Positions 29,915-51,335 are shown, counted from the stretch's first letter. The stretch is DNA of 64,000 nucleotides from Clostridia bacterium (GCA_017453985.1 JAFTDT010000111.1:7679-71678); one strand, 5' to 3'. Program-made: numbers and translations. The notes: generated by a model from the sequence alone, not told the origin.

Positions 29915-29943
29915 TTGACAACCCTATTTTCTGACGTTAAAAT
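29915..29943 (+). promoter_or_regulatory. Promoter of the histidine kinase / response regulator operon
   Basis: TTGACA, 17 nt, TAAAAT. Confidence 0.55.
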
Positions 29944-29993
29944 AATAGTGGGATATATAAAAAATGGGGGCTGAAGAGGGGGAATGACGACGT

Positions 29994-31265
29994 ATGACGT
30001 GGAACCTCAACACGGCAGCATTATTGATACCGCTGCTGTTTTTGCTGCTCGGTTTGGCTGTAACCGTAGCCATCGACCCCTACATCAGCCGGAAACACCG
30101 GTTCGTCATGGGACTCATCATTGCGCTCAGCATCGTGCTGATAGCTCAGAATTTGCTGGAGGATTGGCTGGCGGCAGGCTCGCCCAGACCGCTTCTGCGC
30201 ACGGCGGTTTCAGTTTTGGGCTATACTCTGCGTCCGGTGTTTTTGATTTTGTTTCTCTATATAATCCAGCCGGGGAAAAAGCACATGGTCTGCTGGGGGC
30301 TGGCGATTTTGAACTGGGGCGTGCACATGACCGCCTTCTTTTCCCGCCTGTGCTTCTGGATCGACGAGCATAACCATTATCACGGCGGACCGCTCCACAG
30401 CACCTGCCTGATCGTCAGTCTGCTCCTGCTTGCCTATGGGCTGTTTCAAAGCGCGCGAAGCTATCGAACACCTCGCAAGCATGATACCATAATTCCGGTG
30501 CTGGTGGTGCTTATCACGCTCGGCTCCGTTTTTCTGGACAGCCGGGCAGGTTCGCTGGAGCAGCCGGTCACCTTCCTGACCTTTGGCGTGGTAATCAGCA
30601 GTGTGTTTTACTACATCTGGCTGCATCTGCGCTTTGTGCGGAATTACGAGGACGGGCTGAGGGCGCAGCAGCGGATGCAGATAATGCTCAGTCAGATCCA
30701 GCCGCACTTTCTCTATAACACGCTGTCCGCGATCCAGTATCTTTGCGAGCACGATCCCAAGGCGGCTGGAGTCATGACTGAACGCTTTTCCCGCTATCTC
30801 CAGGGCAACATGAGCGCCCTCAAGGATGATGGGGAGATACCGTTTACCCAAGAGCTGGAGCATACTCGGATATATCTTGAAATTGAGAAGGTACGCTATG
30901 AGGATGCGCTGCAAATTGAATATGATATCACCGTCACGGATTTCAGGCTCCCGACGCTGACTCTGCAGCCCATTGTGGAAAACGCGGTGCGTCACGGCGC
31001 GAGAGGCAAAAGAGGCACGGGGACCGTGAATATCGCCACGCGGGAATATCCCGACCGCTATGAAATCACCGTTGCGGACGACGGCCCCGGCTTTGACCCG
31101 GAAGCGCCGGTGCTCGCTGTTGACGGGAGGGAGCATATCGGCATATCCAATGTCAGAAGCCGTCTGGAGCAGATGAGCGGGGGAACCCTCCGCATCTGGT
31201 CTGAGAAGGGGAAAGGCGCCGTGGTAACCATCGAAATTCCAAAGAAGCAGGTGGATAAAGCATGA
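29994..31265 (+). CDS. Sensor histidine kinase, LytS/YehU-type (His_kinase + HATPase_c) with a six-TM sensor region
   Basis: QIQPHFLYNTLSAIQYL phospho-acceptor box. LQPIVENAVRHG N-box, DDGPGF, GIGISNVRSRL. Confidence 0.88.
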   Translation: MTWNLNTAALLIPLLFLLLGLAVTVAIDPYISRKHRFVMGLIIALSIVLIAQNLLEDWLAAGSPRPLLRTAVSVLGYTLRPVFLILFLYIIQPGKKHMVCWGLAILNWGVHMTAFFSRLCFWIDEHNHYHGGPLHSTCLIVSLLLLAYGLFQSARSYRTPRKHDTIIPVLVVLITLGSVFLDSRAGSLEQPVTFLTFGVVISSVFYYIWLHLRFVRNYEDGLRAQQRMQIMLSQIQPHFLYNTLSAIQYLCEHDPKAAGVMTERFSRYLQGNMSALKDDGEIPFTQELEHTRIYLEIEKVRYEDALQIEYDITVTDFRLPTLTLQPIVENAVRHGARGKRGTGTVNIATREYPDRYEITVADDGPGFDPEAPVLAVDGREHIGISNVRSRLEQMSGGTLRIWSEKGKGAVVTIEIPKKQVDKA

Positions 31266-32059
31266 AGATTATTGCCATAGATGACGAGCCGAAGGCGCTG
31301 CGTCTTCTGCACAACGCCATAGCTGCGGCGGAGCCGGATGCCGAGATTACGGATTTTTCCGACAGCGAGGAGGCATTGCGGGCGATGCGGGAGCAGGGTC
31401 TCCGGGCGGACGTGGTTTTTTCCGATATTGAGCTGCCGGGCATGACCGGACTCGCCTTTGCCTTCGAGCTCAAGAAAATCGCGCCGGAGACGAAAATCAT
31501 CTTCGTCACCGGCTTTCCCAAATATGCCGCAGACGCCTTTATGCTCCATGTGAGCGGCTATATCGTCAAGCCGGTATATGCCGACCGCGTGCGGGAGGAG
31601 CTGGATAATCTGAGGCTCTCGCCCGCCGTGCCGCAGCCGGACAAGCTGAAGGTGCATTGCTTCGGACATTTTGAAGTATTCTGGCGCGGGGAGCCGGTCA
31701 TATTCCAGCGCAGACAGAGCAAGGAGCTGCTCGCCTTTCTGATCGACCGCGAAGGGCGTGCCTGCACCGCGGAGGAGATTGCCGCCGCCCTGTGGGAGGA
31801 TGATGACGATATGAAGGCGGCGCACGTCCGCATTCGCCGTATCCTCAGCGACCTAAAGGCTACGCTGCGGGAAATAGGCATGGACGATTTGCTGATACGT
31901 GAGCGCAGACAGCTTGCCGTTCGGCGGGACATGGTGGATTGCGACTATTACCGGATGCTGGAAGGGGATATGGAAGCGGTCAACTCCTTCAGCGGGGCAT
32001 ACATGGAGGAATACAGCTGGGCGGAGCTGACTGCGGGGCGGCTGCAGTTTCGGACATAA
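31262..32059 (+). CDS. Response regulator: receiver + SARP/OmpR-like winged-helix DNA-binding domain
   Basis: REC (IAIDDEP...VVFSDIELPGMTG...IIFVTG...IVKP), then HCFGHFEVFWRGEPVIF...SKELLAFLI...EEIAAALWEDD...RRILSDLKATL. ATGA overlap with the kinase gene. Confidence 0.85.
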   Translation: MKIIAIDDEPKALRLLHNAIAAAEPDAEITDFSDSEEALRAMREQGLRADVVFSDIELPGMTGLAFAFELKKIAPETKIIFVTGFPKYAADAFMLHVSGYIVKPVYADRVREELDNLRLSPAVPQPDKLKVHCFGHFEVFWRGEPVIFQRRQSKELLAFLIDREGRACTAEEIAAALWEDDDDMKAAHVRIRRILSDLKATLREIGMDDLLIRERRQLAVRRDMVDCDYYRMLEGDMEAVNSFSGAYMEEYSWAELTAGRLQFRT

Positions 32060-32081
32060 CAGGGCATTATTTTGCGTGCAA

Positions 32082-32116
32082 GTCGGGGCATTTTTTGCGC
32101 CCCGACAATTTTTTTT
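32082..32116 (+). terminator. Terminator after the two-component operon
   Basis: gtcggggc...gccccgac followed by aatttttttt. Confidence 0.8.
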
Positions 32117-32170
32117 AAAGTTTTTTCTAAAACAGGCGAATTTTGTCACGCTTGTGGACGCTTGCTATTG

Positions 32171-50919: not shown

Positions 50920-50931
50920 TGAGAAAGAAAG

Positions 50932-50955
50932 CCTCCCGCCCTGCGGGGCGGGAGG
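50932..50955 (+). other. GC-rich hairpin without a U-tract between the giant gene and the peptide gene
   Basis: cctcccgccc-tgcg-gggcgggagg, followed by aaggcaag on the plus strand, so not a classic terminator in this orientation. Confidence 0.5.
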
Positions 50956-51026
50956 AAGGCAAGACACATGTTTCGCAAAGATATAAACGGCAGTTTAAAT
51001 CGTAAAATTTGAAAGGAGCAGTTATC

Positions 51027-51227
51027 ATGAACAAGAAGAACAAGAAGAGCATCGAGGCGCTGCAAAAGGCAAAAAAAGCAGTAGAGCAGGCAAGTGACGC
51101 GCTTATGTCCGCCATAAAGGAGCTGGATGACAGCGAGCTTGATAAGGTCGCCGGCGGCGGAGAATTTGACGATAACCCGGGTATCATCGAGCATCCGTAT
51201 GATCCCAAAGACGACGGCAGATATTGA
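51027..51227 (+). CDS. Double-glycine-leader precursor peptide (66 aa), bacteriocin/pheromone-like
   Basis: ATG at 51027 lies 8 nt after AAAGGAG. Leader ...IKELDDSELDKVAGG has hydrophobic residues at -4, -7, -12, -15 and Glu at -8. Predicted core: GEFDDNPGIIEHPYDPKDDGRY. Confidence 0.75.
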   Translation: MNKKNKKSIEALQKAKKAVEQASDALMSAIKELDDSELDKVAGGGEFDDNPGIIEHPYDPKDDGRY

Positions 51228-51304
51228 TAGGCAAATGCGGTGAGAGAACCGCATCGGCATATCTCTCGCCTCGGCGGCACGGTAATGCTTACCGGTATGA
51301 CGGA

Positions 51305-51335
51305 GGACGGCAGGATTTTTCCTGCCGTCCTTTTT
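51305..51335 (+). terminator. Terminator downstream of the peptide gene
   Basis: ggacggcagg-attttt-cctgccgtcc followed by ttttt. Confidence 0.8.

Follow-up and report, generated by a model that had tools for sequence, protein, structure and literature searches.

Do a peptide exporter, a giant wall protein and three signalling modules that lie side by side in one genome work together, and which cargo would they serve? This question is raised by positions 29,915-51,335 of a 64,000-nucleotide (nt) stretch of DNA (the whole stretch is called the window below) from the metagenome-assembled genome (MAG) "Clostridia bacterium" (GCA_017453985.1, JAFTDT010000111.1:7679-71678). Peptidase-containing ATP-binding cassette (ABC) exporters are usually viewed as pumps for bacteriocins or pheromones that two-component systems control. 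The reading that we prefer, and to which we give about even chances, is a regulated unit for peptide export and a wall protein, with interchangeable controllers. Each part of it is of a known kind; the combination and the peptide-giant cargo pair are new, and the regulators are exchangeable.

Twelve genes were found between 29994 and 51227 (Table 1), all on the plus strand in our open reading frame (ORF) map. The public gene calls on the identical contig show the same genes on this strand and none on the minus strand within the locus; the NCBI entries for the proteins are MBQ9535981-MBQ9535990. A first-pass annotation, made from the sequence, had placed every gene on the plus strand, which is matched with both maps, and its domain calls were every one right in Pfam and NCBIfam scans. 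Its gene names hold as to the domains; the "adaptor" is a truncated HlyD-like protein, and the "orphan receiver" had to be renamed a pseudo-receiver. Same-strand gene order alone is weak evidence for a unit. The same neighbourhoods recur in many species, which means that the locus is not due to chance. It is a real, conserved and lineage-restricted cluster of an uncultured rumen or gut Clostridia MAG, and most of the related loci that were fetched belong to MAGs of Oscillospiraceae.

The exporter core consists of the adaptor and two half-transporters, ABC1 and ABC2. ABC1 is a full member of TIGR03796 (947.2 bits, cutoff 853.3) and its C39 peptidase triad is intact (Cys31, His105, Asp121). ABC2 has TIGR03797 as by far its best family, with a match over profile positions 31-685 of 686 at 686.3 bits (cutoff 709.4). 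Both nucleotide-binding sites were canonical in a motif check. The adaptor matches TIGR03794, a model of 421 positions, only at positions 1-91 (33.2 bits, cutoff 156.2, E 2.5e-8). Its AlphaFold2 (AF2) model (pLDDT 72.6) has an N-terminal helix, one transmembrane (TM) helix and a small beta-barrel, with no coiled-coil hairpin, and the fold search with this model gave no significant PDB match.

TIGR03794, TIGR03796 and TIGR03797 together make up the three-gene NHLP/Nif11 export cassette described by Haft et al. 2010 (PMC2887384). Judged by these family matches, ABC1 and ABC2 are an export pair of the NHLP/Nif11 type, here combined with an accessory protein that is truncated and with a cargo that is not typical. 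The gene order is the same (accessory protein, peptidase ABC, peptidase-less ABC), and the cargo carries a double-glycine leader in both. The accessory protein, however, has 138 amino acids (aa) in the locus and ~420 aa in the cassette; the cargo of the locus is short, free of Cys and without an NHLP or Nif11 leader; modification enzymes are absent; and a giant SLH protein and signalling modules are added, which are unmentioned in PMC2887384. The first-pass annotation did not recognise the gene combination as a described system. This stands for the combination, on which our literature search found no paper, but not for the exporter core, which belongs to the known cassette.

PCAT1 of Clostridium thermocellum and other peptidase-containing ABC transporters (PDB 4ry2 and related entries) have the C39 domain, the type-IV exporter fold and the ATPase in common with the locus; for the permease/ATPase region of ABC2, the match with PCAT1 chains has E 4e-62. 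PCAT1 is a homodimer, whereas the locus encodes two different half-transporters with one peptidase only, which suggests a heterodimer. ABC2 also differs from PCAT1 by an unrelated N-terminal domain. This N-terminus of ~175 aa has no Pfam match at E < 10, and its reading as a degenerate C39 domain was rejected by profile-profile comparison (probability 1%, 64 + 64 sequences).

The candidate substrate is encoded by the last gene of the cluster, which NCBI annotates as a 66-aa hypothetical protein. The leader of this precursor ends in ...LDDSELDKVAGG, which fits the double-glycine pattern, and the predicted mature part is GEFDDNPGIIEHPYDPKDDGRY, with a net charge of -5, no Cys and three Pro. The leader shows a weak match with Pfam L_biotic_typeA, below the cutoff. 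No NCBIfam match was found for the precursor, including the NHLP (TIGR03793) and Nif11 (TIGR03798) leader models, and no modification or immunity family was detected among the 12 locus genes with Pfam and NCBIfam.

The gene before the peptide gene encodes the giant protein. It has a Sec signal peptide, an acidic N-terminal part and Calx-beta, and further on a long-strand beta module, a beta-propeller-like part, Big_2 and three SLH domains. A word-indexed homology search with aa 1400-2100 of the giant returned one fragment only, and an exhaustive representative search was used instead; it gave a family of 134 representative clusters among 1.84 billion proteins. Conservation in the family is best at aa ~1510-2200. 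In the giant itself, conservation and hydrophobicity are highest at aa ~1690-1867 (window 46654-47187), which the AF2 model (pLDDT 74.5) folds into seven or eight beta strands, each 15-28 residues long, ahead of the propeller-like domain. Two mid-protein TM helices, which hydropathy had suggested, were rejected, as AF2 puts these segments in very long beta strands.

Relatives were drawn from 256 adaptor homologues and from a scan of one genome per species (185,579 species) that gave 163 matching stretches. Eighty species-level loci (given below by their L numbers) were compared, each by ORF calling, clustering and tblastn with all locus proteins. The adaptor, ABC1 and ABC2 genes are adjacent in essentially all 80 and form the invariant core. 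In the close clade the adaptor is 68-91% identical to that of the window, and the MAGs come mostly from rumen or other ruminant gut, many of them labelled Oscillospiraceae. The usual order there is adaptor-ABC1-ABC2, a protein of ~65 aa (p65), an extracytoplasmic function (ECF) sigma factor, often an S8 mycosin-like protease, a peptide of ~58 aa with a Gly-Ala or Gly-Gly site, and a giant of 3,100-3,570 aa. Eight of these loci have 9 kb or more of downstream sequence; seven of them carry the Gly-Gly/Gly-Ala peptide and six the giant.

Wherever both genes are visible, the peptide gene adjoins the giant gene; the order is giant and then peptide in the window and in L014. The peptide core is of the type NPFxxxPRxPxQPIDxDLRxNG in most relatives and of the type (E/M)FDDxPxxIEHxYxxxDxxRY in the window and L014. 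The giant of the window is 51% identical to the giant of L014 and ~25-31% to those of other relatives. L010 and L011 have exporters 87-89% identical and kinase/regulator pairs 72-80% identical to those of the window, yet their peptide is of the other type and their giants are at 25-31%. It means that the peptide type tracks the giant type, not the exporter or kinase type. In addition, L021 has a minimal set of exporter, S8 protease, peptide and giant, without regulators. This locus and the co-variation of peptide and giant point to the peptide-giant pair, served by the exporter, as the functional core, and they speak against a primary role of the peptide as pheromone of the kinase.

The front ends of the loci are mosaic. 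The block of histidine kinase, response regulator, pseudo-receiver and DUF3592 protein lies upstream of the exporter in L008-L013, the STAS-PP2C-kinase block in L015 and L016, and PP2C only in L006, L007 and L018; L004, L005 and L021 have no front end, with no signalling genes within 10 kb. Both blocks are present in this window and in L022. A distant clade (adaptor 28-44% identical) includes Lachnospiraceae, Ruminococcus, Ruminiclostridium and Eggerthellaceae, among them the cultured Sporofaciens musculi, Murimonas intestini and Eubacterium sp. 14-2. Of its 65 loci, 42 carry STAS, 27 PP2C, 28 the kinase and ~30 both p65 and sigma. In ~22 of these 65, the end of the RsbW-like kinase gene and the adaptor gene downstream of it are separated by 11-90 nt; at least nine loci without kinase or phosphatase in the flank have STAS alone before the adaptor, at a distance of 11-58 nt. 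The first-pass annotation had read the signalling modules and the exporter as possibly one unit. Their co-localisation in relatives is clear from the kinase-adaptor neighbourhoods, and that of the histidine kinase block from at least six close relatives; a fixed set it is not, as the modules are swappable and some relatives have none.

In the histidine kinase, Pfam and hydropathy show six hydrophobic segments ahead of the His_kinase (PF06580) and HATPase_c (PF02518) domains. Compared with the orthologues of L008, L010 and L011, its sensor half is 61-69% identical and its catalytic half 82-83%. The response regulator has a canonical receiver with the phospho-acceptor Asp present and a weakly matching Trans_reg_C/SARP-like DNA-binding part. 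The stand-alone receiver, for which the public gene call begins at the same ATG (32214), has Glu at the position of CheY Asp57 and Arg at that of Asp13 in the alignment with CheY, and both substitutions are kept in its orthologues in L008-L013. Because Glu replaces the phospho-acceptor Asp, it is a pseudo-receiver and not a phosphorylatable partner of the kinase. The DUF3592 protein is arranged as TM, DUF3592, TM and an unannotated cytoplasmic domain of ~220 aa (Pfam, hydropathy). It accompanies the kinase, regulator and pseudo-receiver in L009-L013, and a 60%-identical homologue adjoins another STAS/PP2C/kinase module in L089.

The second block has the components of a partner switch. The STAS protein exceeds the TIGR00377 cutoff (79.9 bits, cutoff 53.45), and its conserved YISSAGL loop in the alignment holds Ser54/Ser55, of which a phosphorylatable Ser is predicted. 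The phosphatase matches PF07228 with 178 bits, has the metal-binding Asp motifs and carries an extracytoplasmic dCache domain. The RsbW-like kinase matches PF13581 (HATPase_c_2) with 88.6 bits, and its N, G1 and G2 boxes are intact. The trio thus has in common with RsbU-RsbV-RsbW and SpoIIE-SpoIIAA-SpoIIAB a PP2C, a STAS protein with conserved Ser and an HATPase_c_2 kinase, all with intact motifs. It differs from these modules in that its phosphatase sits in the membrane and bears an extracytoplasmic dCache sensor, that it is positionally joined to a peptide exporter, and that there is no sigma gene in the 64-kb window. The search for sigma used tblastn with the ECF sigma of relatives and a SigF sequence as queries; the Sigma70 domain is absent from all locus genes in Pfam, and no homologue of p65, sigma or S8 protease was found in the window. 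All exporter-linked PP2Cs in the relatives are membrane proteins with a variable sensor part.

As no sigma gene lies in the 64 kb, a non-sigma output is possible, and reports of such outputs are appearing for partner switching in other settings (bioRxiv 10.64898/2026.04.08.717354). Partner switching that would gate export or wall-protein deployment, as the first-pass annotation had proposed, is a consistent reading. More than 8,000 proteins are close homologues of this STAS protein, and on three sampled long contigs its homologues of 83-85% identity lie beside SpoIIE or dCache-SpoIIE-HATPase_c_2 fusions. The partner switch is a general-purpose module that was repeatedly placed before this exporter, not a dedicated subunit of it. 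Co-evolution of STAS and exporter, considered from the 56-71% STAS identity in distant loci, was rejected in view of the >8,000 homologues and the other contexts in three of three samples.

Fusions of this kind were seen in L089:4937-12565 and L090:8001-12774 as 860-aa dCache + SpoIIE + HATPase_c_2 proteins between two STAS genes. L089 is also flanked by the DUF3592 homologue, and neither locus has an exporter or a sigma gene within 8 kb. They look like a widespread variant of the partner switch.

The gaps from the pseudo-receiver gene to the peptide gene are 47, 19, -4, -11, 114, 8 (17 with the ATG start), 19, 28 and 107 nt; these recomputed values fit the 8-114 nt or overlaps given in the first-pass annotation. 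The promoter-like site before the kinase/regulator pair and the terminators at 32082-32116 and 51304-51335, which it had also named, were all found. There is no canonical terminator between 32116 and 51304; terminator-like matches inside genes are not enriched (20 seen, 13 +/- 4.8 expected from shuffles). The terminator behind the kinase/regulator pair is kept in L008-L013. The spacer between the regulator and pseudo-receiver genes also holds a direct repeat, TTGTcACGC / TTGTggACGC (TTGTnACGc twice, with a 10-nt period), just upstream of the TATAAT box of the pseudo-receiver operon. Repeat and -10 box are kept in L008-L013, relatives at ~80% protein identity; the exact repeat ACGCTTG-N3-ACGCTTG occurs in this species only, and a degenerate form is kept in the relatives. 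From the absence of a canonical terminator between 32116 and 51304, the short gaps, and the conserved terminator and promoter between regulator and pseudo-receiver genes, a single unit of ~19 kb plus its two-component controller is plausible. A motif common to the intergenic regions was sought and rejected, with no meaningful shared 8-mer. The Rfam scan gave no cis-regulatory RNA in the locus and matched only a tRNA-Trp.

A GC-rich hairpin without U-tract (50932-50955) begins 13 nt past the stop codon of the giant gene. L014 has a hairpin of other sequence at the equivalent site (L014:6937-6972, -32.2 kcal/mol, z -7.2), so that in the two species the position is kept and the sequence is not. 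Relatives with the peptide gene first have no hairpin between the peptide and giant genes. The element may serve in transcript processing or stabilising, or may partly stop transcription ahead of the peptide gene.

From the observed gene content, intact motifs, terminators and conserved neighbourhoods we infer how the unit could work, from operon extent and regulator binding to peptide role and switch output. The kinase/regulator pair, which has its own promoter and terminator, would most likely activate the promoter at 32143-32176, with the regulator presumably binding to the direct-repeat region. A long transcript would extend from the pseudo-receiver gene as far as the hairpin at 50955 or beyond, probably to 51335. 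The C39 domain of ABC1 would cleave the 66-aa precursor after Gly-Gly, and the ABC1/ABC2 heterodimer would export an acidic, proline-rich peptide of ~22 aa, which might act on the cell surface in concert with the Sec-exported, SLH-anchored giant. A phosphorylation switch for an extracytoplasmic cue could come from two further sets, the pair of pseudo-receiver and DUF3592 protein and the dCache-PP2C/STAS/kinase trio. Because no sigma gene is present in the window, this switch would have its output either on the exporter, through STAS (or the kinase), or in a sigma factor from another part of the genome.

Several observations weigh against this reading. The pairing of peptide and giant is drawn from adjacency and co-variation in ~12 loci that are not phylogenetically independent, and the fold search with the giant (Foldseek, PDB) gave no match at E <= 0.001, with only weak matches to GH43/sialidase propellers and barrels. 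Most relatives have p65 and ECF sigma, often also the S8 protease, between exporter and giant, and the window does not; it may be a reduced or rewired variant. The signalling modules are also found apart, and the three loci L004, L005 and L021 do without them. The exporter was absent in three of three sampled contexts of close STAS homologues with PP2C/kinase genes, which makes the trio a promiscuous module and not part of an exclusive system; its adjacency here could reflect merely shared transcription. The hairpin at 50932-50955, which is strong and conserved, may uncouple the peptide gene from the operon, and the 114-nt gap upstream of the exporter could conceal a promoter.

How do other explanations compare with a regulated export unit? 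A peptide-pheromone circuit of the ComABCDE/BlpABCHR kind would have the Gly-Gly peptide as autoinducer, sensed by the six-TM kinase and/or the dCache domain of the PP2C, with the giant as its main output. The streptococcal systems indeed share with the locus a Gly-Gly peptide, a C39 exporter with accessory protein and a polytopic kinase with its DNA-binding regulator, all here in one cluster; the peptide is anionic, Cys-free and unlike a bacteriocin, the sensor half of the kinase diverges faster than the catalytic half, and the exporter of distant relatives is paired with AgrC-like kinases (PF14501). But Com and Blp use HPK10 kinases and LytTR regulators, whereas the kinase here is of the PF06580 type and the regulator has a winged-helix, Trans_reg_C-like output. 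The peptide gene is not with the kinase gene but 19 kb from it and always beside the giant gene; the giant wall protein is the chief product encoded along with it. L004, L005 and L021 keep the peptide without a nearby kinase or PP2C, L010 and L011 combine kinase/regulator pairs of 72-80% identity with a wholly different peptide core, and the core is kept across species, which is unusual for pheromones. We regard this circuit as rather unlikely. A bacteriocin or ribosomally synthesised and post-translationally modified peptide (RiPP) export cluster, in which the peptide would be antimicrobial and the giant and signalling genes mere co-oriented neighbours, seems highly improbable, even though bacteriocin-like NHLP/Nif11 peptides were the basis for defining the exporter family (PMC2887384) and distant relatives encode one to eight Cys-rich Nif11-leader peptides with a radical SAM/SPASM enzyme. 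Its difficulties are the charge of -5 and the three Pro of a Cys-free mature peptide, the lack of modification and immunity genes among the cluster genes in Pfam and NCBIfam, and the adjacency and co-variation of peptide and giant across relatives.

The trio could also work in the classical way on a sigma factor encoded elsewhere, with the kinase as anti-sigma factor, STAS as its antagonist, PP2C as the input and the cluster simply in the regulon, so that the exporter itself would not be a target. All three proteins have canonical motifs, the same trio type occurs in other contexts, and among the 44 loci with long flanks ECF sigma is present in 12 of the 16 that bear the kinase. Against this stand the 64 kb around the locus without a sigma gene, four loci with full trio and long flanks that also lack one, the ECF type of the relatives' sigma, which is paired with its own small upstream protein, and the STAS genes that alone abut the exporter in at least nine loci. 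We hold this arrangement to be unlikely.

The p65 and sigma genes (L006:14885-15549, L004:15006-15694 and ~25 other loci; absent from the window) are translationally coupled, with a 4-nt overlap at the start of sigma in most loci. The p65 protein has a conserved N-terminal LFDFQRF helix, a Gly-Gly-like site L-x-D-x-E-L-E-x-N-A-A-G (L-S-D-x-...) and a short tail. The helix, this site and the 4-nt overlap together suggest that p65 could be an exported anti-sigma factor, a speculative idea that parallels FlgM or BtrA of Bordetella. This would make a secretion-feedback circuit of Gram-positive bacteria, built around a peptide exporter. In relatives, the anti-sigma p65 would be removed by C39 cleavage and export, with the partner switch gating the exporter; in the window, which would have lost the pair of p65 and sigma, the switch would act directly on ABC1/ABC2 and time the release of the peptide, itself a specific extracellular partner of the giant. 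We consider this two-part scheme doubtful and more so than a sigma factor elsewhere.

By analogy, the closest logic among known systems is that of Bordetella btr, in which the partner switchers BtrU/BtrV/BtrW are needed for type III secretion, with the ECF sigma BtrS and the secreted anti-sigma BtrA (PMC8256260; Ahuja 2016, PMC4780644). In the relatives the trio likewise adjoins a secretion machine, ECF sigma is in the same cluster, and a small presumed substrate of the machine is encoded beside sigma. However, the machine is an ABC exporter here and a type III system there, the phylum is another, there is no sequence kinship beyond common domains, and the functions here are inferred. The window itself, moreover, lacks both the sigma and the small protein.

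In the relatives, the S8 protease lies between the sigma and peptide genes in L006:15609-16949, L004:15694-17118 and L021. Among the models it comes closest to TIGR03921, the mycosin of type VII secretion, but its 210 bits stay below the cutoff.

Here, as in dozens of Clostridia from rumen and gut, the pump has a physical link to a serine-phosphorylation partner switch; often it is linked as well to an ECF sigma whose small partner resembles a substrate of the exporter. Should this link prove functional, a transporter or secretion-coupled transcription would be a new kind of output for partner switching, and peptide or RiPP export in Firmicutes would gain a regulatory layer. The very rare giant SLH family, tied to a dedicated small secreted peptide, offers a handle on the role of such giants in uncultured rumen bacteria. 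For annotation, the core and the exchangeable parts of such loci can now be distinguished.

Table 1. Features of the export and wall-protein locus; positions are counted from the first letter of the window.
Feature	Position	Strand	Basis
Sigma-70-like promoter before kinase/regulator pair, TTGACA-17-TAAAAT	29915-29943	+	11/12 consensus matches; consensus only
Six-TM PF06580 sensor histidine kinase, 423 aa	29994-31265	+	ORF map, Pfam
Response regulator (receiver + winged helix), 265 aa	31262-32059	+	Pfam, NCBIfam
Intrinsic terminator 3' of kinase/regulator pair	32082-32116	+	8-bp GC stem + T8, -19.9 kcal/mol
Long-operon promoter region, direct repeat + TATAAT	32143-32176	+	Sequence; scan match 32143-32171
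Stand-alone pseudo-receiver (REC-only), 124 aa	32214-32588	+	Pfam REC, alignment
DUF3592 membrane protein, 346 aa	32636-33676	+	Pfam, hydropathy
STAS-only protein, anti-sigma antagonist type, 99 aa	33696-33995	+	Pfam, NCBIfam TIGR00377
Membrane PP2C phosphatase, TM-dCache-TM-HAMP-SpoIIE/PP2C, 724 aa	33992-36166	+	Pfam, hydropathy, motifs
RsbW/SpoIIAB-like serine kinase, 144 aa	36156-36590	+	Pfam HATPase_c_2, motifs
HlyD-like exporter accessory protein ("adaptor"), 138 aa	36705-37121	+	TIGR03794 N-terminus, AF2
ABC1, C39 peptidase/permease/ATPase half-transporter	37130-39319	+	TIGR03796, Pfam, motifs
ABC2, permease/ATPase half-transporter without C39	39339-41558	+	TIGR03797 match, Pfam, motifs
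Giant wall protein, 3,110 aa	41587-50919	+	Pfam, PDB sequence matches, hydropathy, AF2, Foldseek
GC-rich hairpin without U-tract between giant and peptide genes	50932-50955	+	10-bp stem, -25.5 kcal/mol
Double-glycine precursor peptide, 66 aa	51027-51227	+	Translation, leader pattern
Intrinsic terminator at cluster end	51304-51335	+	12-bp stem + T5, -32 kcal/mol, z -6.8

The exporters of the distant clade are flanked by one to eight Cys-rich precursors of ~108 aa with a Nif11 leader and by the radical SAM/SPASM enzyme. Such arrays lie downstream of the exporter in L024, L029-L031, L037, L052, L056, L060, L077, L084 and others, in Lachnospiraceae and Oscillospiraceae with cultured strains included. 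The precursors reach 28.3 bits with TIGR03798 (cutoff 32.3) and probably form an uncharacterised RiPP family.

Downstream of the cluster, window 51582-52230 holds a tRNA-Trp gene, which has its own promoter-like site at 51539-51567 and a hairpin at 51663-51698, and after it a low-GC ORF of 167 aa with no family match. This stretch may be the edge of another inserted element.

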